IMG/VR virus record: IMGVR_UViG_3300012205_000001
Coordinates: 1 to 44,042 of that record
DNA length: 44,042 nucleotides
Direction: 5' to 3' (one strand)
From: a virus
Shown here: positions 13,220 through 27,705 of the stretch, piece by piece
Position numbering within the stretch: position 1 is the stretch's first letter
How the letters are laid out: every line of letters starts with the position of its first letter
Program-made: the position numbers and the translations under genes
The notes under the pieces: model-generated
Database searches by the model: none
The model's input: only the letters and a program-made list of their open reading frames with translations
Told to the model about the DNA's origin: nothing

Positions 13220-15205
13220 CTACGCCGCCGCCTTTCCGGTAGTCAGTGCCGTGATGTCGCTGCCTGACTCGCGTGTATAGGCGCCCAGTGCCTTGACGAT
13301 TTCGCGGCCGATTTGGGCCTCGGTGCCAGGCAGGACGCCGCTGATGTTGATCGTGATGGGCGGCTTGTCGGCATTGCTGCCGCTACTGCTGCCAGATGAG
13401 CGAGGGCCGCTGGTAAATCCGCCGCTTCCGGCGCTGCTGCCGCCGCTCGCCGCAGATGATGAGCCGCTTGTGCCGACAGCGCGCGCCCCCAGTCCTGCAC
13501 CGACACCGATGGCGCCGAAGAGTGCTGCTGATTCGAAATGAAGGGCAGCGGGTCCGGGCATGAACATCGCCAAATCAGCGATACCGGCGGCGGTCTCGTA
13601 AAGGGCCCGCCCGATGGCCTGCGCTGCCAAGCCTTCCAATATATCGTGTGTCGCTTGCCTGACGGACGTCGAATGCGCCTTGTCGCCGGCAATCGATGCG
13701 GCGATGCTGGCTCCCAAGGCGTCGGCCATTTTCTTACCAGCGCCCGCGATCATGCTCGATGTATCAAGGGCATTCTTTTGGAATTCATCGAGATGCTTGT
13801 ATGTCTCATTCGGACCATTTGGACCAAATAGCAATTGGGCCATGAGACCGCCCGGTACTCCGCCGCCGCCTTTGTCGATAATTTCCCGCAGATTCTCGGC
13901 GCGTTTTTTTACGATCTCCTCGAAGTCCTTATCATTTCGACCAGCGAAGTCCTTCTCGGCTTTGTCCATGGCCGCGCCCTGCTCGCCCATATCGGCGCCA
14001 CGCGCCTGATATTCGCGTTCCTGCCCGCCGGCAGACTGTTTGCCGTATGGCGAATAATTGTCGTATGGATCCTCGCCGCCATTCCATTGCGATAAATCAA
14101 ACGGCTTCGGCTTGTCGGGCTCATGACCGACGACACTAAATCCCTTGCCATAGCTATTTCCAACGGCAAGCCGTTTCCGTTCTGCCTCCCACATGGCATC
14201 TTCGGCGGCTTGTTTCGCGGCAGCTTCCTCTTCTTTGCGAAACTCGGACTGAGCTGCTGCGTAGGCTGTCGTATCACCATAGGGGGATACAGAAGCGAAT
14301 GTCGCAAGGCGAATACTTCCAATCGATTTCTTCGTCTCGGTACCAAGGTTCTTGACGCCAGCGATGAGGCGCTCCAGGGCACTGGCCACCGTCAGACTTT
14401 TCTCGCCCCATTTCTCGGTTGCCTCGCCTATGGATTTGAGTGCGGCCTCTTGAACCGCCAGGACCTTTTGACCGTCAGTCAATTCGGAAGTGACAAGGCC
14501 ATGCGCCTGTGCAAATGCCGCCGCCGCCTCGGTTGCGCTACCCATCACGCCAACATGCTGCAACATCTTCGTGCGACCGGTAGCAAGGCCATCAATCAGA
14601 CCGTCAAGCGCTTCTTTGACATTCGTTCCAGTGACGTCCGCATAATGTTTCGCCGCCGCAGCAACCAGGCCATATTGCTCATCTGTGAGTGTAAGTTCTT
14701 TTGCGAATCCGCGATTCTTCGCCGAGATGAGATCGATATCTGCAACCTCTCCCCGCGTGGCCTCACGCATCTGATTGATTGATCCGCGAAGCCCTTCATA
14801 GATTTTCGTATCGACGATGATTTCCTCGCCAAACCGTTTGAAGCGCTCCCAGCCCTCGGTCATTACGTCGATTACACCACGTGCAACCGTTGTAATATTT
14901 TCGAGATCCTCGGCGGTGCGTCGCCATTCAGAGGCGGCACGATTCGCGGCTATCTCATGTGCACGCTGAACTTTATTGACCGCGTCGACTTGATCCTGAA
15001 GGTCCTTGATTTGTTCCTGGGCCGTATCCTTCGCCGATTTCGTCGTCGCGTCGTTCGCCTGCTTGTGCAGGACAACCAGCTGATCGAGATAGGCCTTAAT
15101 TCGCGCATTTAGTTCGCCTTGGGTCGACGCCGCCAGCTGCTGGACCTCGGCCGGATCCATGCCCTTGATGACGAGCTTGAGCAGGATCTGATCTTCCGTT
15201 GGCAT
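13220..15205 (-). CDS. Tape measure protein (661 aa)
   Basis: Long charged, helical, Ala/Glu/Lys-rich protein with Gly-rich C-terminus (GAGLGARAVGTSGSSSAASGGSSAGSGG); flanked by putative chaperone ORFs upstream and tip proteins downstream. Confidence 0.55.
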   Translation of the reverse strand: MPTEDQILLKLVIKGMDPAEVQQLAASTQGELNARIKAYLDQLVVLHKQANDATTKSAKDTAQEQIKDLQDQVDAVNKVQRAHEIAANRAASEWRRTAEDLENITTVARGVIDVMTEGWERFKRFGEEIIVDTKIYEGLRGSINQMREATRGEVADIDLISAKNRGFAKELTLTDEQYGLVAAAAKHYADVTGTNVKEALDGLIDGLATGRTKMLQHVGVMGSATEAAAAFAQAHGLVTSELTDGQKVLAVQEAALKSIGEATEKWGEKSLTVASALERLIAGVKNLGTETKKSIGSIRLATFASVSPYGDTTAYAAAQSEFRKEEEAAAKQAAEDAMWEAERKRLAVGNSYGKGFSVVGHEPDKPKPFDLSQWNGGEDPYDNYSPYGKQSAGGQEREYQARGADMGEQGAAMDKAEKDFAGRNDKDFEEIVKKRAENLREIIDKGGGGVPGGLMAQLLFGPNGPNETYKHLDEFQKNALDTSSMIAGAGKKMADALGASIAASIAGDKAHSTSVRQATHDILEGLAAQAIGRALYETAAGIADLAMFMPGPAALHFESAALFGAIGVGAGLGARAVGTSGSSSAASGGSSAGSGGFTSGPRSSGSSSGSNADKPPITINISGVLPGTEAQIGREIVKALGAYTRESGSDITALTTGKAAA

Positions 15206-15540
15206 CAGTGCCGTCCCTTCGCCTTGCGCTTCTCGCTGTCATAATCATCGCGGGACCGCTTTTCTTTGAGCCAAATATGGACCAGGTCGATGGCCATGGG
15301 CGACAGCGTCTCGACGTTGCGCGAGCCGGATTCAATTTCGAATGCCCATTGTGAGACGAGCCGCGCCGGATGGATGCCACCGTCAATCAGATAGGGCGCC
15401 GGGAGGCCCATGCCGGCCGTGCGCAGATAGAAGGCCGGGCAATCGTCGAAGACCTCCTGCGAGCCCGGGATCGGATTCCAGGCGCCGTCAGGCCGCTTGG
15501 CGCTGATGTCCGGGCATGCCCATTGCCGTCGCATGCTCAC
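15205..15540 (-). CDS. Putative tail assembly chaperone, second ORF in the -1 frame (111 aa)
   Basis: Sits in the -1 frame relative to 15537..16199 and immediately before the tape measure protein, matching the conserved G/GT arrangement. Starts at GTG, overlapping the upstream stop (GTGA). Confidence 0.3.
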   Translation of the reverse strand: MSMRRQWACPDISAKRPDGAWNPIPGSQEVFDDCPAFYLRTAGMGLPAPYLIDGGIHPARLVSQWAFEIESGSRNVETLSPMAIDLVHIWLKEKRSRDDYDSEKRKAKGRH

Positions 15541-16199
15541 TGGACACCCGACGCAGCCTCCGGCGCGGGAGACGGCTCCATAATGGCCGTCGTGGACGCC
15601 GCCACCGATGATGGCGTCTGCGTGGACGGCGGCGATGATGCTTTTTTTACGGCGTCCTCTGGATAGGTGGCGCGGTAGATGAGGCCGCCATAGAAGGCGA
15701 CCATGCCGGGGTAGCGCGTTTCCAGATCGCTGATGAACTCAGGCGCCAGCATACGCACCCCACGCTCCTTGACCACACGCGGGTGTCGAATTTGGTCAGG
15801 CGTCTGAATCTCCTCGGGCTCGCCCGGGAAGTCGACGCCGATGCGGAAGCACACCAGCGTAGCCCTGCCCCAGCTTTCGACATTGTTGGCCGCCTCATAC
15901 CAGTAGGCTGAGGCCATGCGCGCTTCATCGGGCGTCAGATTGCGGAAGGTGATGATGCTGGCCTTGCCGGCGGATTCAAATGGGCGAAGGTGCATGGCCT
16001 CGCCGTCCTCACGCCAGCTGGCCAGTGCGGCGGCGCTGATATTCGCCAGTGCAGGATCCTCGCGCCAGATGCTCTCCCTGACCTCATGAGGCCTCCAACC
16101 GAAGCTAAGAGCCATCGCGCGCTCCCTTCGCCCACCCAGGCTTCGGGGTGGAAGAGGAAGGCGAGGGGGACGACGCGATGGCAGCAATCTGGGCGGCAA
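15537..16199 (-). CDS. Putative tail assembly chaperone (likely starts at internal MALSFGW)
   Basis: Track ORF; N-terminal 28 residues are Pro/Arg-rich and implausible. Position upstream of the tape measure protein. Confidence 0.3.
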   Translation of the reverse strand: MPPRLLPSRRPPRLPLPPRSLGGRRERAMALSFGWRPHEVRESIWREDPALANISAAALASWREDGEAMHLRPFESAGKASIITFRNLTPDEARMASAYWYEAANNVESWGRATLVCFRIGVDFPGEPEEIQTPDQIRHPRVVKERGVRMLAPEFISDLETRYPGMVAFYGGLIYRATYPEDAVKKASSPPSTQTPSSVAASTTAIMEPSPAPEAASGVQ

Positions 16200-16331
16200 G
16201 AAACGTCAGCCGCACCGAACAGCCGCACATCACCTGGACATCGCCACTTTCGGGCGCCTCCACCACCTGATGCCCAGCGTGCGGAACGTGATCGGGCGCG
16301 AGGGCCCCGACAAGGCCGATGAGCGAGTCCA

Positions 16332-17984
16332 TTACATCCATCCGACGTTGAAGCTGGGCAGCGTGGCGGCGAAGCTGTTGCCTCGGACGGCCTGCGGATG
16401 GATGGCCTGCCCATCGAGCGCGAACTCCCCTTGGCCGCCATTGTAGGTGAAGACCGCTTTGGTGAGCTGCAGGGCAGGCGCGCCGATGCAGAACGTCTCC
16501 TTCGGGTTGCCGCCCTTCTGGTAAAGGAAGTTCACCACGTCGCCGGCATGGAGGCGGTCAACCAGGTCCTTGAATGAGGCCAGATCGTCATTGTCGGCCA
16601 GGGCGGTAAAACTCATCGACACGGGCTCGACGTCCATCGCCATGCCGTCCATTTGATTGAATGCGTTCAGGCTTGGGCGTGGGATCGGCTTGAGACCGAA
16701 CATCACCTTCAGATCGCCGCAGATGACCTGTGTCCCGTCGATGCAGAGGCGGGCCCCCTTGCCGTCGACCGGCACCGTCGTGTCGAGCAGCGGAACCGGG
16801 AAGGAGGCCGACGTGATCGGATTGGTGATGTTGTATTCGATGCCCTCGGCAGCGACGTATTTCATCAGGAACTTGATCACCTGATCGCGTGCCACGTCGA
16901 GTTCGATGGTCGGCATGCAGCCATGGAAGACCTGTCGATAGAGCCCGCCGCGATAGAAGTCGAAGGTGCGGGTCCGGAAGTCGGTCGTCTTGAAACTGTA
17001 CCAGGCCGAAGCATAGATCGTGCTCGCCGCCGCCACCGACCCGGTCGTGATGACGCCGTTCTGCACGGTCAGTGTATTGGTGCTCTTGTTCAGCACCTGG
17101 AACGCCTCACCGGTGGCCAACAGGCCGAAGCCGCCGATGCTAAAGCCCGCCCCGCTGGCGGCGACGACCGTCGTTGCAGTCGAGCTGCTGACCGTCGAAC
17201 CGGTGTCGAGCGTCTCGGTCATGTGGTCGCCCAGAAGGCCGCCCATCTCCTGGGGCGGGACGGCGGCGGTGGCATTGCCGGCACTTGCCGTGAGCGGCCG
17301 CTGGGGCAGGATGATCTCCAGGGTCGATTCGGTGGTCACCGGCACGGCCGCGTCGGCGGCCTTCAGGCCCACAATTCGGCGCTGGACCACCTTGTGGGTC
17401 ATCGTCGCGGTGGCGGGCGCCTCCGGACGTAGCAGGGAGCGCAGCAGGTACAGCGCGCCGTCCCCGCCGGCCGCCGCCATGGTCGGCGTCGTGGTGAAGG
17501 TCCCGGTGCTGCTCAGAAAGCTCGCCACCTGATAGGCGCCGCCCGCATTCGTGCCGCCCTTGCCGACTAGGAACATGCCGCGATTCGTCGGAAAGCTGTC
17601 GGGCTCGTTCGTGATGCTCTGATGGGCCGAGCTGGTGACGGTTGTGGTCGTTGCCGTCGCAGTCGACCGCACAGGCACCTCGGCCGGCTGCCAGAGGGCC
17701 AACGTCGTCACGTTGGTGCCCGACGTCCAGGCGGCGTCGATCGTCGCCGTGGTCGTGCCGAGCACGAAGCTTTTGACCTGCCGCACCTGGCCGCGCGCGT
17801 CGCCATCCAGCGGCACGACGTAGTTGCCGATGCATGTGCTGGTCAGCGTCGCGCCGACGAATGTCGTCGTGGTGACCGATGAAGGGGTGATGGCGCGCGC
17901 CGTGGCCTCCTGGGAGGCTCTATACTGCGCCTCCGGGGCGGTCAGCAGTAGGTCGCGTGTTTGGATCCTTGGCTCGTTCGGCAT
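16332..17984 (-). CDS. Putative major tail protein (550 aa), Thr/Ala-rich
   Basis: Large structural-looking ORF directly upstream of the chaperone pair; assignment by gene order only. Confidence 0.35.
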   Translation of the reverse strand: MPNEPRIQTRDLLLTAPEAQYRASQEATARAITPSSVTTTTFVGATLTSTCIGNYVVPLDGDARGQVRQVKSFVLGTTTATIDAAWTSGTNVTTLALWQPAEVPVRSTATATTTTVTSSAHQSITNEPDSFPTNRGMFLVGKGGTNAGGAYQVASFLSSTGTFTTTPTMAAAGGDGALYLLRSLLRPEAPATATMTHKVVQRRIVGLKAADAAVPVTTESTLEIILPQRPLTASAGNATAAVPPQEMGGLLGDHMTETLDTGSTVSSSTATTVVAASGAGFSIGGFGLLATGEAFQVLNKSTNTLTVQNGVITTGSVAAASTIYASAWYSFKTTDFRTRTFDFYRGGLYRQVFHGCMPTIELDVARDQVIKFLMKYVAAEGIEYNITNPITSASFPVPLLDTTVPVDGKGARLCIDGTQVICGDLKVMFGLKPIPRPSLNAFNQMDGMAMDVEPVSMSFTALADNDDLASFKDLVDRLHAGDVVNFLYQKGGNPKETFCIGAPALQLTKAVFTYNGGQGEFALDGQAIHPQAVRGNSFAATLPSFNVGWM

Positions 17985-18044
17985 CTTGTTCTCCTCGGCA
18001 CTTGTTGTGTCGGTCCCCGCCCGTCGCTGTCCGCCCCGGAACTG

Positions 18045-18518
18045 CTATCGAATCTTGTCCACCGTCACCCGGAGCCCGCCCAGAAGGTCATTGGTGGCCT
18101 TCAGGATTGGCGCGATGAAACCGTATTTTCGCTGCTTGTAGGCGGCGTAGGCCTTCGACAGGGGCGCGAAGGCGCCGCCGCTCTTGTCACGCTGCCGCTC
18201 GACGTTGTGGGCGATGGCCGCCAGCATGAGCTGGCCGATCGTGGTGATGGCCCGCTGGCGCACGCTGGCGTCCGCGCTGCCGAGCGCCTTGGCGACGAAT
18301 CGGATCGGCTCCATGTCATCGCGGTCGATGTACCAGGGCGAGCGCTTGAGGCCCGCCTGGACGCGCGCGATGACCGCGTTGCGCTCGGGGCCGCGCGCGC
18401 CGGTGGGGATGACCGAGATACGCGTGCCGTCGAGGGCCTGGCTGACCTTGGCGGCTTTCAGCTTGACTGCCTGGGCAATCTGGTCGCCGATGCCCTGAAG
18501 TTCAGCGCCCGCGCTCAT
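18045..18518 (-). CDS. Hypothetical head-tail joining region protein (about 157 aa from internal MSAGAELQ)
   Basis: Track ORF 18045..18665; the internal Met at 18516-18518 overlaps the upstream stop and removes an implausible N-terminus. Confidence 0.4.
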   Translation of the reverse strand: MSAGAELQGIGDQIAQAVKLKAAKVSQALDGTRISVIPTGARGPERNAVIARVQAGLKRSPWYIDRDDMEPIRFVAKALGSADASVRQRAITTIGQLMLAAIAHNVERQRDKSGGAFAPLSKAYAAYKQRKYGFIAPILKATNDLLGGLRVTVDKIR

Positions 18519-19000
18519 GACGTCATCACGTCCGAGCGCCACTGCGCCCAGAAGCGGTGCTCCCAGATTTCGCCCTTGCCGCGGTCCAGGATGCGCCGGC
18601 TGCCCTGATAGCGGACCTCGCGGATGCCGCTGGTCGCCGTAAAGTAGTTCGCCGGCAGGTCGCACACGTCGGCGATGTGCATGCCGTCGTCACCGGCGTG
18701 GCGCAGGGTGGCGATCCTGTCGTCGGCCGCCGCGTCGCCCCCGCCCCTGAAGTAGGCGACGTTCACCGCCACGGTGGCCGCCGTGATGTTCTCGACGGTG
18801 CCGTAACGCCGCTCATGCGGGTCGACGCCCAGCACGTCGACGAAGTAACGGCCGTCCAAGGCGCTGTCAGGCTCCTTGTCCAGCTCGAAGCGGTAGCCGC
18901 TGGGCACGAGCTTGCCGTCGATGGAGCTGGCGCCCATGATCAGCGCAAGATTCACGTGGAACGTTGCCAGCACGGCGGCCGGCAGGAAGGTGCTCATGCG
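18515..19000 (-). CDS. Hypothetical structural protein carrying the ~130-aa domain shared with the tail fibre C-terminus
   Basis: Track ORF 18515..19192, likely starting at internal MSTFLPAAV near 19000. Shares FELDKEP, VAYFRGGGDA, GIREVRYQG, GEIWEHRFW and WRSD blocks with the C-terminus of 2574..4601. Confidence 0.45.
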   Translation of the reverse strand, partial: RMSTFLPAAVLATFHVNLALIMGASSIDGKLVPSGYRFELDKEPDSALDGRYFVDVLGVDPHERRYGTVENITAATVAVNVAYFRGGGDAAADDRIATLRHAGDDGMHIADVCDLPANYFTATSGIREVRYQGSRRILDRGKGEIWEHRFWAQWRSDVMTS

Positions 19001-19857
19001 CGCTCCAGGCGGCCGACCGTGAATCCAACGTCGTTGCCGCCAGACGTGATTCCGTCTTGGTCGGCGTCGATGGGCAGGTTGGCGATGATCTCGGTCTTGC
19101 GCTTGTCGTACTCGGCTTCCAGCTTGTCCATTTGGGCCGACCATTCGTCGCCGAACGAATACCGGCGTAGCAACCAGAACTTCAGCGCGCACTGGCGACG
19201 CAACTCGGCGAAGCCAAGAAACGCATGCGCCCGGTTCTTCCCACCGAGGTCCAGCAGCGTCTCATCGCGCGCTTCGCGCAGGGCGGCGACCATGTCGGTT
19301 TCGGCATCCAGGTTCAGGCCCAATTTCGGGAAAACCAGGCGCAAATCTGACTCATCGCACAGGAAGTCTGGAATCTTGGTCAAATAGCACTCAACTGCTT
19401 CGGTCAGCGTGTCGCCGGCGGGCGGCGTGAAGGTCGCCCATCCATTGGTCCAGACCGCATCGGCCTGGGTGCTGGTGACGGCATAGCTGACGCGCGTCCC
19501 GCGGAAGGTCGCGCCCGACACATGCGCCACACCGAGCGGCGCCCAAAGCGTACAGGTGCTGGCCGTCAGGCTCTTGACCGTGACGACTTCGTCGGCCTCG
19601 GTACCGTTCGGGCCGCCGAGGCGATACCGCCGACCGACCACGATGCTGGTGGCGCTCGTTACATCGACAGTCCTGGCCCGCGCAGCGGCGGCACCAGACA
19701 ACGTGGTATTGACCGTATCGACGACCGCGGCGGCGGAGCTAACCTTAAGCGCGCCGGTCGATGAATAGACGCTGACCATACAGGACGCGGGCTGCCGATC
19801 AAGAAACTGCGTCTCGACTGTGCCACCGATGCCCTTGACCAGTGTTTGGAATGCCAC
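18994..19857 (-). CDS. Hypothetical structural protein (287 aa)
   Basis: Track ORF in the head-tail module; no motif recognised. Confidence 0.45.
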   Translation of the reverse strand: MAFQTLVKGIGGTVETQFLDRQPASCMVSVYSSTGALKVSSAAAVVDTVNTTLSGAAAARARTVDVTSATSIVVGRRYRLGGPNGTEADEVVTVKSLTASTCTLWAPLGVAHVSGATFRGTRVSYAVTSTQADAVWTNGWATFTPPAGDTLTEAVECYLTKIPDFLCDESDLRLVFPKLGLNLDAETDMVAALREARDETLLDLGGKNRAHAFLGFAELRRQCALKFWLLRRYSFGDEWSAQMDKLEAEYDKRKTEIIANLPIDADQDGITSGGNDVGFTVGRLERA

Positions 19858-19860
19858 GAC

Positions 19861-20319
19861 TCACTCAGTGGGGAACCCGATGAAGGTGCTGACCGTCGGC
19901 GCGGTGCCGGACGGGACCAGAGAGCGGGTGACGAAGCGGCTGAAGTTGTCGCCCGAGACGTTGAAGGCCTCGGTGCTCAGGACGCGCAGAGCACTGACCT
20001 GCGAGCCGCCCGCGCCGGTGGCGGCGATGGGCTGCCCCTTGTTCATGGCGCCCACCCACAGCCAGCGCGGCGAACTGGCAAATACGCCTTGGTCGGCGTA
20101 GCCCAACAGGTCGATGCGGCAGGAGACCGCACCCACCGTGTCGGCGTAATCCACGGCCACCCAGATGCGGTTGGCCGCCATGAGCGGGGCCACGCCGCCG
20201 GTCATGATGTCAGACAGCGCCTTGCCGGCCGCGCCACCAGACGGATAGGCGGTCGTGGTCGTTGAAGCGTTCAGGTCCTGGACCCAGCGGATCCCGCCTT
20301 CTGCGGTTTGGTACCCCAT
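19861..20319 (-). CDS. Hypothetical structural protein (152 aa)
   Basis: Track ORF; start abuts the stop of the upstream glycosyltransferase-like gene. Confidence 0.45.
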   Translation of the reverse strand: MGYQTAEGGIRWVQDLNASTTTTAYPSGGAAGKALSDIMTGGVAPLMAANRIWVAVDYADTVGAVSCRIDLLGYADQGVFASSPRWLWVGAMNKGQPIAATGAGGSQVSALRVLSTEAFNVSGDNFSRFVTRSLVPSGTAPTVSTFIGFPTE

Positions 20320-21152
20320 TACGCGGCCTCTTTGCGCTCGGCCTTGGCCTGCGCGTCAGCGAGCAGTTGCGGCACATGGTCCAGCGCCACGAACCCGTTG
20401 ATATAACGGACCTCGGTCGCGCCGACGGCGCCGCGCAGAGCGGCGGCCTGTTCCTTGAGCGTCGGCGAATCGTCCTTCCAGCTGTCTTCCCAGTGCTGCC
20501 AAGAGAAGGTAAGTGGACCAGTGTCCTTCATGTGCACGGTGCGAAAGCGCGGGTCGGCCAGCACCTTGAAGCCGGCCGCGCGCAGCCGCGTGCAGAAATC
20601 GTAGTCTTCGCCCACCTCGGACACGCTGCCGGTGAACGTTCGCTTGATGGCGAAGCGAAACCAGGGCAGGTCGTCGCGCGTGGCCTTGAGCGCCGAGACG
20701 CGGATCATCATGAAGCCCGTCGCCACCGTCGCTACTTCGACCGGCTGGAACGGAAAGCCGCTGATGACATGGCAGCACTCCTCCGGGTGCTCCTCATGCG
20801 CCACGGTCACCGTGGGGACCATGGGGCGCTCGCGCAGGTAGACCGCGCCGATCGCGCCCACCTCGGGATGCTGATCGAACAGCGCGTGCCAGACATCCAG
20901 CGGGTTGCCGCCGGGCCCGCCCGCCTCAATCCATAGATCATCATCATGCATGACCAGAAAGTCGTACCCGTCGTTGACCGCCTGGTCGGCGATTCGAGTG
21001 CGCGCCATCTGCACCGGGCCACACGTGAACGCGAAGCTGTCCCGGCCACGCTCGAACGTGCGGCAGCCCATCTCCATGTCGCGCATGCTTTTGACGTACG
21101 CGAGGGTTGGGTGTCGCCCGCTCGGCGTGGCGTAGAACAGCCGGTCGGCCAT
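20319..21152 (-). CDS. Glycosyltransferase-like protein (GT-A fold, DxD) embedded in the head-tail module
   Basis: DFLVMHDDDLWIE (DxD-type motif) and GEDYDFCTRLRAAGFKV, reminiscent of family-2 glycosyltransferases. Lies between capsid-proximal and tail genes on the same strand. Confidence 0.5.
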   Translation of the reverse strand: MADRLFYATPSGRHPTLAYVKSMRDMEMGCRTFERGRDSFAFTCGPVQMARTRIADQAVNDGYDFLVMHDDDLWIEAGGPGGNPLDVWHALFDQHPEVGAIGAVYLRERPMVPTVTVAHEEHPEECCHVISGFPFQPVEVATVATGFMMIRVSALKATRDDLPWFRFAIKRTFTGSVSEVGEDYDFCTRLRAAGFKVLADPRFRTVHMKDTGPLTFSWQHWEDSWKDDSPTLKEQAAALRGAVGATEVRYINGFVALDHVPQLLADAQAKAERKEAA

Positions 21153-21517
21153 CAGTAGCCCATCAACTCCACGATGAGGGACGTGTTGCTGATGTTCGCG
21201 ACGGTGTTGTCGACCCAGGTTCCGACGGCCGTGGTGACCGGCAGGCCCGTGTTCAGAAACTGCAGCAGCAGGGAGGTGGTGCTGGCCGTGGTAGCGCGGA
21301 TGACGCCGCTGGCGGCGATCCCAGCGTTCTGGATCGTAACTGACGGGTTGACGGCCAGCACCTTGCCGCCCATGAAAACCTTGTTGAGCGTGTGGGTGAA
21401 GGCCTCGCCGCCCGTGGAGTACGGGTTGGTGCAGCTCACGTTGTAGCGAAGGCGCTTAATGCCGTCGATGCCATTGGCCGAGTAGGTATCGTCGATGATT
21501 GTCCAGGTCGTAGTCAT
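21152..21517 (-). CDS. Hypothetical small structural protein (121 aa)
   Basis: Track ORF; beta-rich composition. Confidence 0.45.
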   Translation of the reverse strand: MTTTWTIIDDTYSANGIDGIKRLRYNVSCTNPYSTGGEAFTHTLNKVFMGGKVLAVNPSVTIQNAGIAASGVIRATTASTTSLLLQFLNTGLPVTTAVGTWVDNTVANISNTSLIVELMGY

Positions 21518-22119
21518 GGTCGTGCCTCAACGGGCTTGGCCGCCCGCGGTTGGGTCTGTTTCGGTGCTTCGCCCTTGAGCCGCTCGTACAGGGCTTGGAT
21601 CTCGCGGTGCTCCTCGGTCGCGCCGGGCTCGGCGGCGGCTCTTTCGAGCCAGCGCCACTCCACGATGTGACCGACAGAGCCGCTACGGCTCTTGATATTG
21701 CGGATGGGCCAGCCGGCTTTCAGCAGCAGACGCCGCGCCTGTCGCCCGTTGTCCTTCGTGTCATCGATGACGGCGTCAGTGCCGTGATCGACAACGCGCT
21801 TGATGGGCTTGGCGCGCAGATTCGTGCCGGGGATTCTCGGCTCATACCATTCTGACGACTTCATCGGCTGGCCATCAATGGAAACCAGGCGAACCGGCCC
21901 GACGTTGTAGATCTTTTCCGCCCCATACTGGGGCACATTCTGCGGCGAGGTTGAGACACCGTCCAGGACTTCGAACGCCATGGTCTGCAGCGCTTCATCC
22001 TGGAGCATGAGCTCCGTATAGGTGAACGTTCCCGCCTCCATGGCGCCGATGATGGCCCCTCGGACAGCAGCAACGCGGCCCTCTCTCGTCGGCAGTTGCA
22101 AGATCGAAATGTCGAGCAC
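21514..22119 (-). CDS. Hypothetical head module protein (201 aa)
   Basis: Track ORF directly downstream of the putative major capsid gene. Confidence 0.45.
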   Translation of the reverse strand: MLDISILQLPTREGRVAAVRGAIIGAMEAGTFTYTELMLQDEALQTMAFEVLDGVSTSPQNVPQYGAEKIYNVGPVRLVSIDGQPMKSSEWYEPRIPGTNLRAKPIKRVVDHGTDAVIDDTKDNGRQARRLLLKAGWPIRNIKSRSGSVGHIVEWRWLERAAAEPGATEEHREIQALYERLKGEAPKQTQPRAAKPVEARP

Positions 22120-22134
22120 GGTTCGCCTTTCTGG

Positions 22135-23082
22135 CTATGTGGCGGAGTAGCCGGTGATCTTCCAAAAATGCTTCGGGTTATCCGCGCCGATCCCGAACGC
22201 CATGGTGATAAGCCATTTGTCCGAGTCGTCGGTCTTGCCCAACAGGTCGACCTTCATCTGCCGGCGCCATGACATGAACAGATCGCCCGTCTGGACGCCG
22301 AGAAAGATGCTGTTATCCAGGTCGCGGATCGGCGTCAGTGGCCGCCCGGCATAGGTGATGCCGGAGCTGTTGCCCTGCAGGTCGATGCTGTTGTTGCCCG
22401 ACATGATGCGGATCGAATTGTTTGCCGAGCCGGCCAGGCCGATGGCACCGCGCGCCTTCTGGATCTGCTTCGGCGACACCCATACCTGGTCGTAGCTGGA
22501 CGCATAGTCCGCGTCGCGGCTGAACCGGTCGGCGGCGTCGATGTCGGCCAGGGTCACCGTGGTACCGCTGCCCGTGGTCTCATATGCCTGAAACCAGGTA
22601 TAGGTGTTGCGGTCCAGGCCAGCGATGGTGCCGGCGCTGTCGCAGATGCCCTGGATGCCCACCGGCGACACCAGGCCCGTGCCAAGCGCGTCCGTGGATG
22701 CCAGGTCGATGACGTCGGCCATGCCCTTTTCGAACTCCTGGGCGAACTGGTCGAAGAACGCGGCCTGCGGATTGCCGTTGTTCAAAGTGTCGCGGGCGTG
22801 GCCCGTGATCTGAACGACGACCTTGTAGTAGGTGAATGGCCACTGCGCCGTGACGTATGACTGCGAGCCGGGAGCGCCCGCCGCGTCACCCTCGACGTAT
22901 CGGGTGACCGACGTGTTCTTCCCGTACTGCATCTTCCGGTTGAGCGTTGTGCCGCCGGTGTCGGGGCGCAGATTGAAGCGCCCGAGTACCTCACTATTGC
23001 GGAACGTGGTGTCGACCAGCCCGGCGATCGCCTGGGTTTTGGTCGCCGCGTCGATGGAACTAGCTGCCGTTACGCCTGCCAT
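22135..23082 (-). CDS. Putative major capsid protein (315 aa)
   Basis: Position immediately downstream of the scaffolding-like gene, with size typical of HK97-fold capsid proteins; by gene order only. Confidence 0.45.
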   Translation of the reverse strand: MAGVTAASSIDAATKTQAIAGLVDTTFRNSEVLGRFNLRPDTGGTTLNRKMQYGKNTSVTRYVEGDAAGAPGSQSYVTAQWPFTYYKVVVQITGHARDTLNNGNPQAAFFDQFAQEFEKGMADVIDLASTDALGTGLVSPVGIQGICDSAGTIAGLDRNTYTWFQAYETTGSGTTVTLADIDAADRFSRDADYASSYDQVWVSPKQIQKARGAIGLAGSANNSIRIMSGNNSIDLQGNSSGITYAGRPLTPIRDLDNSIFLGVQTGDLFMSWRRQMKVDLLGKTDDSDKWLITMAFGIGADNPKHFWKITGYSAT

Positions 23083-23091
23083 GGGACTCTC

Positions 23092-23805
23092 CTACGGACC
23101 GCCGGTGCCCTTCGGGCCTGTCAACTGGCCGCTCGCGACCATCTCGTTGACCATTGCCTGCCCGAGAGACAGAGGCTGATCCTTGCCGTCGGCGCCCTTC
23201 GGCGGGACATACGGCACTTTCACTTTTGGCTGCGCTGACCCGGTGCCAGCGCCGGCCTTGAAGTCGGGGTTTGCAAGGTAGCTTTCGGTCTTCAGCAGTT
23301 CGTCGACGAGCGCTTCGACGGTCTTTCCCTCGGGTCCGGTAACGGTGCCGTCTTCGCCCACCACCAGCTGGTGCTCCAGCATGGCGGAGAGCGCTTTCGT
23401 GCTCCGCACGCGGCCGGCGAACGGCATGAGCGCATCCCGCTTGGCAACGCCCTGTAGCTTGCCCGTCAGGTCAGCGGTGCGCTTCTGCTCTTTCGCCAGT
23501 TCCTTGGCCGTCTTGTCGTTCATCGCCTTGAGCTTTTCGACCTCGGTCTTGGCTGCCCCGGATTCATCGAGCTTGGCCTTGATCTGTTCGATCTCGGCCG
23601 GATCGGTGATCCCGAGCTTCTCCAATAGTTCGGCAGTCGCTGCCTCGCGCGCGGCTTGCTCGCGTTTCTTGGCCCTCGGTTCCCACGATGCCAGATAGGC
23701 CCCGTCGTTGTCGAAGTGCGAGCCAGTCTCCAGGGCGTCTGGGAATTCCCCCTTGCCCTCTTTCCACGCATCGAGTGCGGCCTTGATCGTCTTGGAGAGT
23801 GCCAT
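23092..23805 (-). CDS. Putative scaffolding protein (237 aa)
   Basis: Highly charged, Ala/Lys/Glu-rich helical sequence (ELLEKLGITDPAEIEQIKAKLDESGAAKTEVEKLKAMNDKTAKELAKEQKR) between portal and capsid genes. Confidence 0.5.
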   Translation of the reverse strand: MALSKTIKAALDAWKEGKGEFPDALETGSHFDNDGAYLASWEPRAKKREQAAREAATAELLEKLGITDPAEIEQIKAKLDESGAAKTEVEKLKAMNDKTAKELAKEQKRTADLTGKLQGVAKRDALMPFAGRVRSTKALSAMLEHQLVVGEDGTVTGPEGKTVEALVDELLKTESYLANPDFKAGAGTGSAQPKVKVPYVPPKGADGKDQPLSLGQAMVNEMVASGQLTGPKGTGGP

Positions 23806-23815
23806 CCGTCTTACC

Positions 23816-25465
23816 TCACCCCGGCTCTGCGGCGCCGGTAGCCTGACCGGGATTGTGGCTCCCGTTGCCCTGCCCAGGTGGTGCCGCCTGGTTCGGTTTC
23901 TTCGTTGTCACCTGCCCGGTTCCGCTGGTAGTGTCAACTGGCGGCGCTTCGACGTTCTGGAGGCTGTCGAGTAGCGGGGCCAGCTTATCTGGCGGCATGC
24001 CGGCGAACTTGCGCGCCACCATCTGGCGGCGGAGCTCCAACATGACCGCTGGCGACAGGCCAAGAAGCCGCATGGACACGACCTCATTGATTTCGTCCTG
24101 CAGGGCCTGGAGGTCGAAATCCTGCGGGTACTGGATGTGAGGTAGGTCGGCAATCGAAGCCTTGATGCCCGACGTCCGATAGGCCAGCACCAAGACGGCG
24201 AGGCGTTTTTCAAAGTCCTCAGCTGCTGATGCGATGTCACCCAGGATGCTGCGCTTGTCCTCGTTTTCCAGCTCCATGGCGGCGGCGGATGATTTCTGCA
24301 TGCTGCGCCCGAGCGTGCCGCGGCCAGTGCCGAGGCTCTCTTTCATCTGGTCCATGGTGGCCAAGATGCCTTCGGACAGGACGCGCGCCTGCTCGGGGTC
24401 AGGAGAGACGTACTGTGGCATCGCGCTGGTGCCCTGCGGATTGAACCCGAAGACCGTATTGACGCCGGCCTGCAGGACGTCGACATTCGGATCCGGCACA
24501 CACAACCAGCTGAAGGTCTGCTTGTAGTAAATCTCATCCAGCAGTGACCCGTAGTTATAGACGCGGTTCGCGCCCTTGCAGAAGTCGGCCACCAGTGCCT
24601 CGCCATCGGGAAAATCGGTGTCATCACAGCGCGTGATATAGAGCGGCTCGAACGGCACGCGGCCGAGTGGATTCGGCCTGTCGGGCAGTCTGGTCTCGCC
24701 GCCTCCGCCCGGAACGACATCATATTCCTCGACGTGATCGCGATACCAGATTCGAAAGCGATGGCCGGACTTCATTTGCTGGCGCGGCGTGCGCGCCAGA
24801 TCCAAGCACACGAACTGCTTCAGCCACTCGATTTCGCCGTCTTCGTCGACACTCCAATCGAAGATGTCGAGCGGGCTCACCCAGTAGGCATAGGGCAACC
24901 CATCGGCGTCAGGATCGGCGCCGCCCGCTGCTTGCACATCGACGCAGGCCCACATGATGCCCATCGTCAGCACGGGGCGCAGCCCATCGCGAACGAACGT
25001 GTCAATATCCTGGGAGCGATCTTCGTCGACCTCGCCCCAAAAGGTCGTTAGGTCAGGGTTGCCTTCATCGCGCGTGACGCCCTTTTTAAGCGTATGTGAG
25101 ACCAAGCTGTTGACCGTCGGCCGCACCATGTTGTGATATGTGGCGCGCTTGCGGCGATTCTCGAACTCCCACGACTGCTCACGGTTGTGGCGGAACAGTA
25201 AACAACGGGCCGCATCGTCGGCGATGCCGCTGAACGCTTTCTGATTCGGATCGATGAGCTGCCCATTGGCGTTTCGGGCCGCCAAGATCGGATATTGGAA
25301 ATCGACCGACAGCAGCGATGGCCGATGGTACTCGCGCCCGCCCACGTAGCTGACGCGGCCGAACTCGCGCCACCACCATGTCAGGTCATAGCGCGGATGG
25401 CGGTAGTACAGCGAGCCGGGGCGCGGGGTCCCCGTGATCGCGTCGATTGTGACATTCGGAAGCAA
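23816..25465 (-). CDS. Putative portal protein (549 aa)
   Basis: Large ORF immediately downstream of the terminase large subunit and upstream of the scaffold, with acidic C-terminal tail. Starts at TTG 9 nt after the AGGTGA of motif copy B. Confidence 0.55.
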   Translation of the reverse strand: MLPNVTIDAITGTPRPGSLYYRHPRYDLTWWWREFGRVSYVGGREYHRPSLLSVDFQYPILAARNANGQLIDPNQKAFSGIADDAARCLLFRHNREQSWEFENRRKRATYHNMVRPTVNSLVSHTLKKGVTRDEGNPDLTTFWGEVDEDRSQDIDTFVRDGLRPVLTMGIMWACVDVQAAGGADPDADGLPYAYWVSPLDIFDWSVDEDGEIEWLKQFVCLDLARTPRQQMKSGHRFRIWYRDHVEEYDVVPGGGGETRLPDRPNPLGRVPFEPLYITRCDDTDFPDGEALVADFCKGANRVYNYGSLLDEIYYKQTFSWLCVPDPNVDVLQAGVNTVFGFNPQGTSAMPQYVSPDPEQARVLSEGILATMDQMKESLGTGRGTLGRSMQKSSAAAMELENEDKRSILGDIASAAEDFEKRLAVLVLAYRTSGIKASIADLPHIQYPQDFDLQALQDEINEVVSMRLLGLSPAVMLELRRQMVARKFAGMPPDKLAPLLDSLQNVEAPPVDTTSGTGQVTTKKPNQAAPPGQGNGSHNPGQATGAAEPG

Positions 25466-25472
25466 GCCATGC

Positions 25473-25504
25473 GGTCACCTGCCCAAGTCGGATGTCGGTG
25501 TCAA
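25473..25504 (-). promoter_or_regulatory. Copy B of conserved 32-bp bipartite motif (TTGACA-N17-CAGGTGACC) upstream of the portal gene
   Basis: TTGACACCGACATCCGACTTGGGCAGGTGACC on the minus strand, in the 227-bp terminase-portal intergenic region; A/T-rich stretch just upstream. Confidence 0.45.
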
Positions 25505-25692
25505 TTGTATCAGGGTTTTTACCCACTTGACCTCACATTGGCAGGTTTTAGGCTTCCGGATCATGCTGGTTTTCCAACAGCGGGACGGTTTCGGGCCGTG
25601 GGTCGCGGTTCGGCCAGATTCACCACCCAAACGATTACCAATGGCCTGGTGTATCGGCTGCGCGATGCACCACCTCTGCCGCTTGGGCGGCG

Positions 25693-27039
25693 TTACGCAA
25701 TCGCACGCAGCAGTGGCCCACGCTCGACCGTGCTGGCGACGTAGCGCGCGACCGTGACGGCGTGGTCCTTTTGATGCGGGGCTGGCTGTTCAAGCTGCAA
25801 CCCGGCGGGCGTCAGCTGCCAGACGTAGTTCTCGAATTCGCTCGTCAGATTTGGGCACCGCGGGCCCAGGATCCGGATCCGATCCTGATGGAGCAACGAC
25901 GACAGCGTTCGGATTCCGGACAGCACAGAGCGTGCGTGCTCGTCGAACGTCCCGGCACCATAGTTGCGATGTTTCGAAACCCTGATCCCCGCGCGCTGAA
26001 AGCGGACCAGATTGTCCGGTTCAGCCGGATCGGCCACCCATTCATTGAAGCGCCACTTTTGCTGCAGCTTGATCGCCTCCGGCGCCCAGAAGTCTTCGAC
26101 CAACAGCGATGCAGAATAGACCTCGTCAAGAAACCACAGTACTGGTCGCTCGCCGAACGTCAGGCCGGCGACCAACAGAGCGCCCGGGTTGCTGAAGCCC
26201 CAGTCGCAGCCGCCCAAGATGCGCTGGAATTGGATCCCGTCTGGCAGTTTCGAAACCGAAACCCGCGCCCGCGCGAAACCCCGGTAGACCTGGCCGATGA
26301 ATGCCTGCCGGCTCGCCTCCCATTCGCGCTCGAAGTACTCGGGCGCCAGCGTCGCGCGCGCATGCGCGACCTCGGCCTGCAGGCCAGGCGCGCGGGTGTT
26401 GGCCGCCGTAGGCCACCAGTGGGATGAATATCCCGGCACATGGTCATTGGCCGGCCGCTCGAAGGCCTCCCACGTCCAATCGCGACCCAGCGGCGTCGTG
26501 GTGGCAATACACCAGCCCTGTTTATCGGCGAGCGCCGGCCGTAGATAGAGCGGCCAGGCATCGGCGCGGACGCGGGCGGCCTCCTCAATCCACATGCCAT
26601 CGAGACCACTGCCGACCTTTTTTTGTGGATTCCGAACCGTCTTGAATTCGATCAGGATATCGCCCTTGAGCCACCAGCGGCCCTTCGCGTTGTCGACATG
26701 GTCGATCAGCTCCTCTGGCAGGAACTGCAGCAAATAGCGCTTCGGCTCATCGAGCAGCTCATATGTATCGGCGCAGATCCAATAGTGCAGCCGCGCGCGC
26801 CGCTGCCACCAAAGGACGGTTCCGCGCCGCGCGGCGCCGGGCAGATAGAGTAGCTGCTTCCGGCGCGCGAAGTCATCCCAGACGCGCTGAATGAACTTCT
26901 TGGCGGCCGTATAAGTCTTGGCTCCGCGGCGGCCGGCCAGACCCAAGACAAAGCGCGCCGGGTCGATGAAAAACCGGTAGGCCGGCAGGTGGAGCGGGCT
27001 GTCAGGGCCGAATAGCTGGATCGTGAGCGCAAGCGACAT
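25693..27039 (-). CDS. Terminase large subunit
   Basis: N-terminal Walker A P-loop LAGRRGAKTY; C-terminal acidic nuclease-type region (GGCDWGFSNP, ADPAEPD); about 450 aa, upstream of the portal. Confidence 0.8.
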   Translation of the reverse strand: MSLALTIQLFGPDSPLHLPAYRFFIDPARFVLGLAGRRGAKTYTAAKKFIQRVWDDFARRKQLLYLPGAARRGTVLWWQRRARLHYWICADTYELLDEPKRYLLQFLPEELIDHVDNAKGRWWLKGDILIEFKTVRNPQKKVGSGLDGMWIEEAARVRADAWPLYLRPALADKQGWCIATTTPLGRDWTWEAFERPANDHVPGYSSHWWPTAANTRAPGLQAEVAHARATLAPEYFEREWEASRQAFIGQVYRGFARARVSVSKLPDGIQFQRILGGCDWGFSNPGALLVAGLTFGERPVLWFLDEVYSASLLVEDFWAPEAIKLQQKWRFNEWVADPAEPDNLVRFQRAGIRVSKHRNYGAGTFDEHARSVLSGIRTLSSLLHQDRIRILGPRCPNLTSEFENYVWQLTPAGLQLEQPAPHQKDHAVTVARYVASTVERGPLLRAIA

Positions 27040-27241
27040 TCAGGCGCACCGCCGGCTCCCTGGTATCTCCAGGTGTTGGCCTTCTGATAGCCTGACGTTG
27101 ATGGGACGCTTATCGAGGACGTTCATCTCGTGGTCACCCGCCTCACGACGCAGGAGCCGGCTTTTCTGCATGCGCCGGGCGACCGCACAGGTTACTGCCT
27201 GGGTCGTCGCCTCGCTTCGCCGTCGCTGGGTCTGGCCTTTG

Positions 27242-27700
27242 TCACGACAGTTTGTCAGCCGTCGTGGTAGTCGTTTCGGTCATCGGCGCAAGTTGGCACT
27301 GTAACTCGGGTGGCGGTGGCATGTGGGTGTGAACGTGGATTTCGGTGGGCACCACGGAGTTCGCATCTTCGATGTCGGGATCAATCGCGATCACGGCGCG
27401 CACCAGCACGTCAAGCACCTTCGCTGCATCGACCGCCAGTGATGAATGCTCCGTACCGCAATTCCTTGGCTTGAGCACCGAGATGAGCGGATTGATCTGC
27501 CCTAAAAATTGCGTCGCCAGATCCGCGCGTATGGAACGACGTATGCTGACAAGGTCATCGGTCTTGAGCCGGCTAACAATCTGTACCACCGTCATGCGTG
27601 GCATCTTGAAGTGCTGGCCCGTCTCGCTGAAGTTCTGGCTCAGCAAATAGTGCGCATAAACCGCCTCTTCCTTGGCCGGCGGTGTTTTTCTGCCCTTCAT
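27242..27700 (-). CDS. Putative terminase small subunit (likely starts at MKGRKTPP, 27698-27700)
   Basis: Gene immediately upstream of the large subunit. The track start at 27718 lies inside motif copy C; the ATG 5 nt downstream of the motif is more plausible. Confidence 0.35.
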   Translation of the reverse strand: MKGRKTPPAKEEAVYAHYLLSQNFSETGQHFKMPRMTVVQIVSRLKTDDLVSIRRSIRADLATQFLGQINPLISVLKPRNCGTEHSSLAVDAAKVLDVLVRAVIAIDPDIEDANSVVPTEIHVHTHMPPPPELQCQLAPMTETTTTTADKLS

Positions 27701-27705
27701 TCCTC

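Follow-up and report, generated by a model that had tools for sequence, protein, structure and literature searches.

An uncultured phage carries, embedded among the head and neck genes of its late operon, a core gene of its lineage coding for a predicted glycosyltransferase (GT) of the GT-A type. The best explanation for the presence of this gene is the late, cytoplasmic glycosylation of head or other virion proteins, a reading to which we give a probability of about 0.55. The window analysed here is the complete 44,042-nucleotide stretch of IMG/VR record IMGVR_UViG_3300012205_000001. It represents a complete circular assembly of a 43.9 kb genome with a terminal overlap of 123 nt and has a GC content of 62.5%. 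The GT gene, with a GC3 of 0.85, is typical for genes of the window.

The GT gene in the late operon

The gene belongs to a minus-strand array with the order TerL, portal, 237-aa protein, major capsid protein (MCP), 201-aa protein, 121-aa protein, GT, 152-aa protein, 287-aa protein and Phage_tail_S protein, the last of which opens the tail block. The features of this region are:

25693-27039, minus strand: TerL (phrog_2, 2.5e-19)
23816-25465, minus strand: portal protein (phrog_145, 2.4e-46)
23092-23805, minus strand: scaffold-like protein of 237 aa, a putative scaffold from its position only
22135-23082, minus strand: major capsid protein, SU10-like, HK97 class (Pfam SU10_MCP 1.6e-4, phrog_9953)
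21514-22119, minus strand: conserved 201-aa protein directly after the capsid gene, with a Pro/Ala/Lys-rich C-terminal tail
21152-21517, minus strand: beta-sandwich protein of 121 aa whose gene directly precedes the GT throughout the lineage
20319-21152, minus strand: GT of 277 aa with an ATG start, a real ORF
20327-20333, minus strand: Shine-Dalgarno-like AAAGAGG inside the last GT codons, putative ribosome-binding site of the 152-aa gene
19861-20319, minus strand: 152-aa protein coupled to the GT stop, with a conserved S/T-rich N-terminal stretch, STTTTAYPS
18994-19857, minus strand: conserved 287-aa protein (orthologues of 48-60% identity), a neck/connector candidate by position
18045-18665, minus strand: tail-completion protein, P2 gpS-like (Pfam Phage_tail_S 4.4e-5, phrog_26 1.2e-8)
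16332-17984: conserved 550-aa S/T-rich protein that follows the tail-completion gene

The stop codon of the 121-aa gene overlaps the start of the GT gene in the sequence TGATG, and in the same way TAATG holds both the GT stop and the start of the 152-aa gene. Judged from these junctions, the GT is translationally coupled to both neighbours within the late operon. The original prediction had described the gene as embedded and tightly packed among head and tail genes, and the overlaps bear this out, with co-translation alongside head and neck genes. Promoter-like and terminator-like sites between positions 15000 and 29500 were not above shuffled controls.

Several neighbours of the GT are conserved proteins for which database searches give little. 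The 201-aa protein has orthologues in all related loci and no Pfam, PHROG or NCBIfam match. Of the 25 proteins scored, the 121-aa protein is the richest in Ser+Thr (24%), and an S/T tract at about residues 76-83 is conserved in it. A structure search with its model returned only weak and generic beta-sandwich matches, for which reason the label of decoration protein was dropped and the protein is kept as a candidate for a surface or decoration role. Profile searches of the PDB with the 121-aa and 152-aa families yielded nothing meaningful. Locus L003 has no 152-aa gene, so that the 152-aa protein need not accompany the GT. The 287-aa protein has no Pfam match; its designation as an adaptor was also rejected, as hhalign does not relate it to the SU10_adaptor proteins found in loci L039 and L041.

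Fold, motifs and family of the GT

The original prediction was built on a 277-aa ORF with the motifs MHDDDLWIE and GEDYDFC. Both ORF and motifs are confirmed: the motifs lie at residues 68-76 and 181-187, respectively, and their DDD, GED and C187 residues are invariant across homologues, which speaks against chance. The key residues of the GT are R51, DDD70-72, GED181-183, C187, H207 and K209; all of these except K209 were found invariant in 32 homologues of 35-58% identity. The R, DxD, ED, C and H positions are also kept across the wider superfamily, and a GT paralogue in locus L002 retains the expected catalytic residues.

Structure prediction was the point at which the enzyme assignment could have failed through lack of a detectable GT fold. 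The AF2 model has instead very high confidence (pLDDT 95.6, pTM 0.92) and displays a GT-A fold with a single Rossmann-like alpha/beta/alpha domain and the conserved catalytic motifs. In the model, DDD follows directly after strand 65-69 and ED opens helix 182-192, the usual places in GT-A enzymes. The GT-A core covers approximately residues 1-217 and is followed by a lineage-specific extension (approximately residues 218-277) made of a helix, a hairpin and a long helix. The nearest solved structure is A197 of the archaeal virus STIV (PDB 2c0n), and the top structural matches include LH3, COLGALT1 and ppGalNAc-T, which act on proteins. The xED motif is read as the catalytic base by analogy with the TED/ED of GT2 enzymes, and D183 of GED would hold this role in the phage protein. 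We infer that the GT is a soluble, active and metal-dependent GT-A enzyme, probably inverting and GT2-like.

The HMM search against GT families that had been proposed as a check gave a divided answer. The protein matches the phrog_1574 profile (2.6e-17), whereas curated GT models stay below their thresholds: the Pfam GT2 models Glyco_trans_2_3 and Glyco_tranf_2_3 score 23.1 and 20.4 bits for a gathering cut-off of 27, and NCBIfam HpsN 19.6 bits for a cut-off of 425. Since the Pfam GT2 matches are sub-threshold, the GT assignment rests on fold and conserved motifs and not on a curated family. A phmmer sequence search of the PDB and a tblastn search of 50,697 phage records (E <= 1e-5) gave no match to the GT. 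Among 185,579 species genomes scanned, none yielded a relative of the GT, which leaves no prophage or host clue. No membrane segment is predicted in the GT or in the three partner enzymes described below (KD19 never >1.31).

Core-gene status within the lineage

The family HMM places the GT at the same position in every locus of the lineage that is long enough (L001-L003, L005-L012, L014, L016-L019, L021 and L032-L035). Identity to the window is 43-54% for the GT, 45-57% for the capsid protein, 40-53% for the portal and 46-51% for TerL. On these sequence comparisons, the GT gene belongs to the vertically transmitted core of an uncultured phage lineage and diverges like the genes for capsid, portal and terminase. 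Its own family is narrow, with 31 representatives at E <= 1e-30 versus 5072 at E <= 1e-3. A scan of viral contigs with the single capsid protein gave no match.

Partner sugar-modifying genes

Additional genes for glycan-modifying enzymes are found at a distance from the GT gene in the same genome:

28276-29148, minus strand: second glycosyltransferase, of the GT2 type (Pfam Glycos_transf_2 5.8e-8, above cut-off)
29423-30868, minus strand: protein of 481 aa that begins with a class-I SAM methyltransferase domain (Pfam Methyltransf_11/12)
30865-31872, minus strand: Glyco_trans_1_2 protein, GT-B-type and CgeB-like (Pfam PF13524 7.3e-7, above cut-off)

The GT2 gene precedes the packaging genes, is transcribed in their direction and is conserved in L001-L003, L008, L009, L011 and L022. 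The 481-aa protein has orthologues in L003, L008 and L022. Its C-terminal half (280 aa) has no Pfam or PDB match and may be a further nucleotide-sugar transferase, given a GT-like DxD judged by eye only. Translation of the Glyco_trans_1_2 protein probably begins around the Met of codon 61.

Recurrence beside capsid genes

The window carries the same four enzyme families as a distant clade of the superfamily, exemplified by locus L023, with the difference that in the window they are split in two blocks that flank the packaging and head genes. This L023-like clade comprises 867 protein clusters (profile search, E <= 1e-10) in a superfamily of approximately 5,000 representatives. A GT relative accompanied by GT2, methyltransferase and Glyco_trans_1_2 comes directly after the capsid gene in all five loci inspected in the clade. 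The order in L023 is MCP, a 144-aa protein, the superfamily GT, a GT2+methyltransferase fusion and Glyco_trans_1_2. In all four sampled loci, L038-L041, the MCP gene is followed by two small genes and then by GT-A, GT2 (in some cases with a methyltransferase domain) and Glyco_trans_1_2. L038 and L040 have additionally separate Methyltransf_24 genes and a radical-SAM gene; in L039 and L041 an SU10_adaptor gene is annotated further downstream.

The capsid gene adjoins the GT relative in L023, L028, L029 and L038-L041. The arrangement extends to an unrelated capsid type in MW202496 and MW202462, where the order is scaffold, MCP, small protein and GT. Superfamily members are also found elsewhere: one lies in a replication region (MW202753), and in T4-like cyanophages they precede baseplate genes.

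Proposed role of the GT

We privilege the hypothesis that the GT is made late, its translation coupled to that of head and neck proteins, and that, in the cytoplasm, it transfers sugar from a host nucleotide-sugar to a virion protein of the phage. DDD70-72 would bind the NDP-sugar and a metal ion. The capsid protein is the leading acceptor candidate because it is the sole neighbour of the GT that is constant across different lineages; the 121-aa beta-sandwich protein encoded just upstream would be the second candidate. GT2, the methyltransferase fusion and Glyco_trans_1_2 could then extend and methylate the glycan, in an order that we only presume, and the outcome would be a glycan-decorated capsid as in mycobacteriophages, with a putative biological benefit.

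That the phage glycosylates its own structural proteins was the central idea of the original prediction. It receives indirect support because the GT is a core gene, recurs next to capsid genes, belongs to a shared set of enzymes and is found in a genome from which alternative pathways are absent; the acceptor and donor are presumed. The gene neighbourhood is circumstantial, and late co-expression would fit a DNA- or envelope-modifying enzyme too. The suggested search for Ser/Thr-rich tracts did find them in neighbouring virion proteins, but we judge this result non-discriminating. The capsid protein shows no obvious Ser/Thr-rich terminal extension like those of the glycosylated mycobacteriophage proteins.

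More tentatively, the window GT and the L023-like clade could form one dedicated family of capsid-glycosylating enzymes, at the core of a portable cassette. This possible cassette would consist of GT-A, GT2, one or more methyltransferases, a CgeB-like GT and sometimes a radical-SAM protein, placed between the MCP and the neck or adaptor genes.

Collagen-type glycosylation of hydroxylysine had been suggested by a plus-strand 'collagen' ORF combined with the LH3 and COLGALT1 fold matches. It is rejected: the repeat is in a minus-strand ORF, the plus-strand ORF mostly overlaps a bona fide N6_N4 methylase gene on the opposite strand, and no hydroxylase is present.

Alternative roles

The GT set might modify the host envelope rather than the virion, altering a precursor of a surface glycan (LPS/O-antigen, teichoic acid, capsule or S-layer) and thereby keeping progeny or competitor phages off infected cells or their debris. 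Late co-expression would suit this role too, and there is a precedent in TarP, a prophage enzyme that modifies wall teichoic acid. We nevertheless find it rather unlikely: the GT gene keeps strict synteny as part of the core, changes in step with the structural genes and is no moron with a promoter or terminator of its own, and what it repeatedly sits beside in unrelated phages is the capsid gene. The enzymes have no transmembrane segment and come without flippase, polymerase or membrane-anchored GT, and Pfam scans of the complete genome identified no integrase or lysogeny module. Gtr-type serotype conversion by lipid-carrier glycosylation would call for a membrane-anchored GT, a flippase and an acceptor-specific membrane GT on a temperate phage, features of which the segment prediction and the Pfam scans gave no sign.

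The acceptor could also be another cytoplasmic molecule, such as a host protein or small molecule (e.g. a defence or translation factor inactivated by the sugar) or a phage protein outside the virion like the scaffold, the place in the head operon reflecting timing only. Such a role is improbable in our view, even if LH3, COLGALT1 and ppGalNAc-T among the top structural matches act on proteins and members of the superfamily occur in contexts other than the head genes. A set of four enzymes that includes a methyltransferase suggests an elaborated glycan instead of a single inactivating sugar, and the strict, repeated placement between capsid and neck genes in several lineages would be left without explanation.

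Hypermodification of DNA would have the GT attach a sugar to a hydroxylated base before or during packaging, as a shield against restriction. The enzyme would then belong to, or lie close to, the GT-A DNA glycosyltransferases, which are related to the base-J glucosyltransferase of trypanosomes. To our knowledge, every known route of DNA glycosylation needs a hydroxymethylase or TET, and the Pfam scans of the complete genome reveal no thymidylate-synthase homologue, TET/5mYOX or C5-methyltransferase. The only DNA methylase found when all long ORFs were scanned is the N6_N4 methylase; the one unassigned ORF, of 299 aa, looks by eye like a replication organiser. Resemblance at the active site is nonetheless real: R51, DDD70-72 and EDY182-184 match the signature of DNA-modifying phage GT-As (bioRxiv 10.1101/2023.12.21.572611), and the phage 5hmC GT-As of Pyle et al. 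have in common with the window GT the GT-A fold and the R...DDD...EDY/F motifs. These 5hmC enzymes have relatives in TarP and in the base-J glucosyltransferase of T. cruzi, find their best PDB match in TarP and not in A197, and work with C5-methyltransferase and 5mYOX or with ThyS homologues, which the window genome lacks. About 65% of the GT contigs retrieved with the HMMs of Pyle et al. have no base-modification neighbour, so that non-adjacency is common. The GT position within the packaging and head operon and its late co-expression also fit hypermodifications being installed late, up to packaging, as stated in PMC13326640. With no gene for the hydroxylation step found in these scans, we hold modification of DNA to be quite improbable.

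It is hardly credible that the protein is a structural component or an inactive relic, a GT-A fold recruited without catalysis and with a coincidental DxD, since all expected catalytic residues are invariant in the 32 homologues and kept in the wider superfamily, the L002 paralogue included, and the analogous enzymes of mycobacteriophage Corndog are not in virions (PMC4351075).

Comparison with known systems

Virion glycosylation by the GT would have its closest structural parallel in STIV A197, an essential protein of a virus with a glycosylated capsid protein (PMC10551542). The two enzymes differ in that STIV is an archaeal virus with a double-jelly-roll capsid and the window a tailed phage; there is no sequence-level match between them, the phage GT is longer by a C-terminal domain of some 60 residues, and the acceptor of A197 is itself only putative.

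The genetic organisation finds a parallel in mycobacteriophages, in which the glycans on capsid and tail-tube subunits require phage-encoded GTs of this kind (Freeman 2023, cited in PMC12619734 and PMC12363180). In Corndog, the portal and protease genes enclose genes for a methyltransferase and three GTs, enzymes that are all absent from virions (PMC4351075), and it was consequently an overstatement of the original prediction that enzymes are unusual at this position. The Corndog gp35-38 and Che8 gp110 systems resemble the window in having several GTs and an O-methyltransferase within the virion structural operon, expressed with the head genes. They differ by the place of the GTs, which is portal-protease in Corndog and capsid-neck in the window, by the splitting of the window set in two blocks, by the phage lineage and presumably by the host. 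With hhalign, the window GT family gives probabilities below 1% against Corndog gp36, gp37 and gp38; by this comparison no sequence relationship links the window GT to the mycobacteriophage GTs with a proven part in virion glycosylation.

The wider superfamily of phrog_1574 is made of small GT-As of approximately 200-290 aa, for example those of the L023-like clade and ORF96 of cyanomyovirus S-SCSM2R. They share with the window GT the R, DxD, ED, C and H positions, and a member in BK063679 is annotated as phrog_1574. L023-type enzymes occupy the same capsid-proximal position with the same partner enzyme families, whereas their identity to the window GT is only about 24% and the C-terminal extension is carried by the window GT. 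A more remote likeness exists with PBCV-1, whose cytoplasmic viral GT-As (e.g. A64R) build and partly methylate the glycan of its own major capsid protein (see PMC5408694 and PMC9614988). PBCV-1 is a eukaryotic giant virus; none of its enzymes figures among the top 50-60 structural matches of the GT and no sequence relation is seen.

Implications for virion glycans

We know of no demonstration of particle glycosylation in tailed phages outside mycobacteriophages. There, the virion glycans shield the particle from antibodies. In the lineage of the window, an unrelated GT family is found as a capsid-adjacent core gene across a whole group of uncultured phages, and a related cassette is present in hundreds of further uncultured phage genomes. 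If these enzymes do glycosylate the capsid, virion glycans would be a widespread trait of environmental phages. This would have consequences for how phages adsorb to mucus, particles and hosts, for the stability of the particle and for the immune recognition of therapeutic phages, and would affect the identification of capsid proteins by mass spectrometry. It would also provide a function for phrog_1574 (listed as unknown in PHROG), for the STIV A197-type fold and possibly for the cyanophage homologues. Should the possible dedicated family exist, glycan-coated capsids would be common and ancient in uncultured tailed phages, possibly including marine cyanomyoviruses, the enzyme lineage would be shared with archaeal STIV, and capsid glycans would be no peculiarity of mycobacteriophages.

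The 3' end of the GT gene

A purine-rich element at the 3' end of the GT gene, followed by a start codon that overlaps the stop or lies a few bases from it, is found in 10-11 loci. The C-terminus of the family is conserved as [KE][EK]AA probably because the putative Shine-Dalgarno sequence of the next gene lies inside the last GT codons. A role of [KE][EK]AA as a degradation or docking tag was considered and set aside, as it is better explained by the ribosome-binding site of the following gene.

The GT gene and its place in the late operon

The 277-aa glycosyltransferase-like protein (GT) is encoded by a genuine ORF, as the original prediction held: it begins with ATG, its GC3 is 0.85 (the window has 62.5% GC), and its product carries MHDDDLWIE (residues 68-76) and GEDYDFC (residues 181-187). 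The minus strand holds nearly all genes of the window, and those around GT are ordered from the terminase gene onwards.

Genes around GT, in order
25693-27039, minus strand: terminase large subunit
23816-25465, minus strand: portal
between the portal and capsid genes, minus strand: 237-aa scaffold-like protein
22135-23082, minus strand: SU10-like major capsid protein
between the capsid gene and GT, minus strand: 201-aa protein, then 121-aa protein
20319-21152, minus strand: GT (ATG start, 277 aa)
after GT and ahead of the tail-completion gene, minus strand: 152-aa protein, then 287-aa protein
18045-18665, minus strand: P2 gpS-like tail-completion protein
16332-17984, minus strand: conserved 550-aa protein, followed by the remaining tail block

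GT shares bases with both neighbours: its start with the stop codon of the upstream gene (TGATG), its stop with the start of the next gene (TAATG). The description of GT as tightly packed on the same strand, with capsid-proximal genes on one side and tail genes on the other, is correct. Across positions 15000-29500, promoter-like and terminator-like sites are in no excess over shuffled controls. Since positions 1-123 are identical to 43920-44042, the window is a circularly closed assembly corresponding to a complete phage genome of 43,919 bp.

Sequence and predicted fold of GT

The proposed HMM comparison with glycosyltransferase families gives only weak hits, to two GT2-type Pfam families, both under their gathering scores. 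NCBIfam yields a trivial match, and phrog_1574, a PHROG family of unknown function, matches no more than residues 136-210, at 2.6e-17; PDB sequences give no match. A large protein collection contains 53 clusters of homologues with 35-99% identity, none of them named. Alignment of 32 homologues reveals invariant VQMAR47-51, DDD70-72, D86 and GED181-183, together with C187, D200, T205, H207 and K209. In the structural model DDD directly follows strand 65-69 and ED lies at the start of helix 182-192; GT-A/GT2 enzymes have their metal/NDP-binding DxD and catalytic acid at such positions of the fold. The model, by placing both motifs at these sites, answers the concern that no glycosyltransferase fold would be detectable. 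GT is strongly supported as a glycosyltransferase, with a predicted GT-A fold of the kind found in phrog_1574 and in A197, the glycosyltransferase of Sulfolobus turreted icosahedral virus (STIV). It has no hydrophobic segment and is therefore soluble.

Inheritance within the phage lineage

About 25 loci of this phage lineage were retrieved by look-ups and scans that started from GT, its 121-aa neighbour or the capsid protein, several being overlapping views of the same contigs. The family HMM finds GT directly after the 121-aa gene in every locus reaching that position, sometimes with one small extra ORF in between. Identity to the window protein is 43-54% for GT, no different from the capsid protein (45-57%), the portal (40-53%) and the terminase (46-51%). 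GT belongs to the core genes of the lineage and is inherited vertically; it is no moron.

The GT carboxyl terminus is conserved as [KE][EK]AA, whose codons coincide with a purine-rich Shine-Dalgarno-like element (AAGGAGG or AAAGAGG) of the next gene (window 20322-20333 and its equivalents in loci L001-L035). In 11 loci the start codon of that gene either shares bases with the GT stop or is only a few bases away; the recurrence of both element and close start shows that coupling of GT to its downstream gene is itself conserved. The overlapping translation signal appears to impose the conservation seen at the protein level.

One lineage locus (L002) encodes a second GT paralogue (13233-14096) with all motifs intact and 38% identity to the window protein, placed in the same block a few genes beyond GT, between homologues of the 287-aa and 225-aa genes. 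When 1.84 billion representatives were searched exhaustively with the GT profile, 31 matched at E <= 1e-30; the number rises to 244 at E <= 1e-10 and to 5072 at E <= 1e-3, so that the window family forms one narrow branch within a broad superfamily of ~200-290-aa proteins, in which the R, DxD, ED, C and H positions are retained.

A recurring capsid-adjacent neighbourhood

The recurrence of the GT neighbourhood is the most informative result. In a distant contig (L023/L024), whose SU10-like capsid protein is 24% identical to that of the window, the order is portal, scaffold, capsid protein, 144-aa protein and a 261-aa superfamily member scoring 47 bits to the GT family HMM, with a GT2-methyltransferase fusion and then Glyco_trans_1_2 behind it. 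The distant alignment, used as a search profile, recovers 867 clusters of this clade at E <= 1e-10, mostly of 250-290 aa and on contigs of 30-45 kb. Four of them (L038-L041), chosen for long contigs and identity spread, were looked up. All four show terminase (in three, the gene before portal, which runs off the locus and has no family match), portal, scaffold, a capsid protein of ~320 aa, two small genes and GT-A, then GT2, in some cases with a methyltransferase domain, and Glyco_trans_1_2. L039 and L041 have an SU10_adaptor gene farther downstream. L038 and L040 have additionally two or three Methyltransf_24 genes and a B12-binding radical-SAM enzyme (10870-12378 and 10520-12007, respectively) alongside the glycosyltransferases, which hints at unusual, possibly C-methylated, sugars.

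A different capsid type is seen in the assembled spring phages MW202496 and MW202462, and the order is again scaffold, capsid protein, ~100-aa protein, GT; an archaeal virus, of Methanobacteriales, has its phrog_1574 gene just ahead of a tail gene. The small proteins between capsid gene and GT share no homology between lineages, and the capsid gene is the constant partner. Exceptions are one phage with a GT relative in the replication region and T4-like cyanophages, where it lies shortly upstream of baseplate wedge genes. There, in Synechococcus phage S-SCSM2R (L037, 4812-6401), the relative ORF96 is two genes from a 2OG-Fe(II) oxygenase, a pairing that recalls hydroxylase-plus-GT systems.

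All four enzyme families of the L023-type cassette are also present in the window, split into two blocks: GT-A after the capsid gene, and a second block just upstream of the packaging genes and transcribed in the same direction.

Second block
28276-29148, minus strand: GT2
29423-30868, minus strand: methyltransferase protein
30865-31872, minus strand: Glyco_trans_1_2

GT2 is present in every lineage locus extending far enough upstream and the methyltransferase in all three that extend further. The carboxyl-terminal half of the latter (280 aa) has no Pfam or PDB match; a DxD-like VDADIMF and a GDQKYLD stretch are discernible by eye, and it may be a further nucleotide-sugar transferase domain.

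Putative acceptors

Phage glycosyltransferases have three documented roles: DNA glucosylation, host-surface conversion and virion glycosylation. The original proposal, in which the structural proteins of the phage itself are glycosylated, is the best supported, on genomic context and exclusion of alternatives; we give it slightly better than even odds (about 0.55), the acceptor itself being deduced. Glycosylated virion proteins would accord with the repeated placement next to the capsid gene, with late, coupled expression and with a set of several enzymes that includes methyltransferases. Two precedents agree with this reading. In mycobacteriophages of the Corndog type, a methyltransferase and three glycosyltransferases are encoded between portal and protease; these enzymes are expressed in infected cells and absent from virions (PMC4351075); capsid and tail-tube subunits of mycobacteriophages are glycosylated by such enzymes, according to Freeman 2023 as cited in PMC12619734 and PMC12363180. 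In STIV, A197 is essential and the capsid protein is glycosylated (PMC10551542).

Modification of the host surface keeps some weight, as soluble enzymes such as TarP act on wall polymers. However, the window revealed neither an integrase nor a flippase nor a membrane-anchored enzyme, none of the four enzymes has transmembrane segments, and GT is strictly syntenic, co-diverging and translationally coupled, unlike conversion morons. As to DNA modification, the window encodes an N6_N4 DNA methyltransferase (34268-35290, minus strand; Pfam 5.6e-46) and a small ORF (43134-43502, plus strand) with a weak, sub-threshold match to the Holliday-junction resolvase Hjc (E 4.9e-4, 20.4 bits versus a cut-off of 21.1), both ordinary phage functions.

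If virion proteins are the acceptors, Ser/Thr-rich tracts are of interest, and the anticipated tracts are present and conserved in the 121-aa, 152-aa and 550-aa proteins, a clue that is suggestive only. The 121-aa protein has the highest Ser+Thr content (24%) of 25 proteins scored; its model is a β-sandwich (pLDDT 86.6) with weak, generic structural matches. L003 keeps GT and is missing the 152-aa gene. The 550-aa protein, possibly a sheath, has no family match at all and displays TTTT near residue 40 and 9 Ser/Thr in 12 residues at 261-272.

Relation to known systems and other features of the window

Virion glycosylation encoded within a phage structural operon is already known, and the window locus resembles those of mycobacteriophages in organisation, but GT lies outside their protein families (hhalign probabilities below 1% against Corndog gp36-38). 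Searches by tblastn of 50,697 phage records give no match at E <= 1e-5, and no relatives were found in 185,579 species genomes; the closest cultured phage has 27% portal identity, leaving the lineage with no close cultured relative. New are the enzyme family, its fixed site between capsid and neck genes, its standing as a core gene of an uncultured lineage and the link to a far larger, uncharacterised capsid-adjacent cassette.

Two repeat regions lie elsewhere in the genome. A 9-bp tandem repeat of 44.6 copies (35497-35898) reads on the plus strand as a collagen-like G-X-Y tract (Pfam Collagen 3.3e-18) and on the minus strand as A-[RL]-A repeats within ORF 35435-36331; the surrounding genes are all on the minus strand, and the plus-strand ORF mostly overlaps the genuine N6_N4 methylase gene. 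A 388-aa pentapeptide-repeat protein (41107-42273, minus strand; Pfam 8e-58) is encoded with a 15-bp unit in 42 copies of 92% identity (41514-42149), unusually regular for a phage gene.
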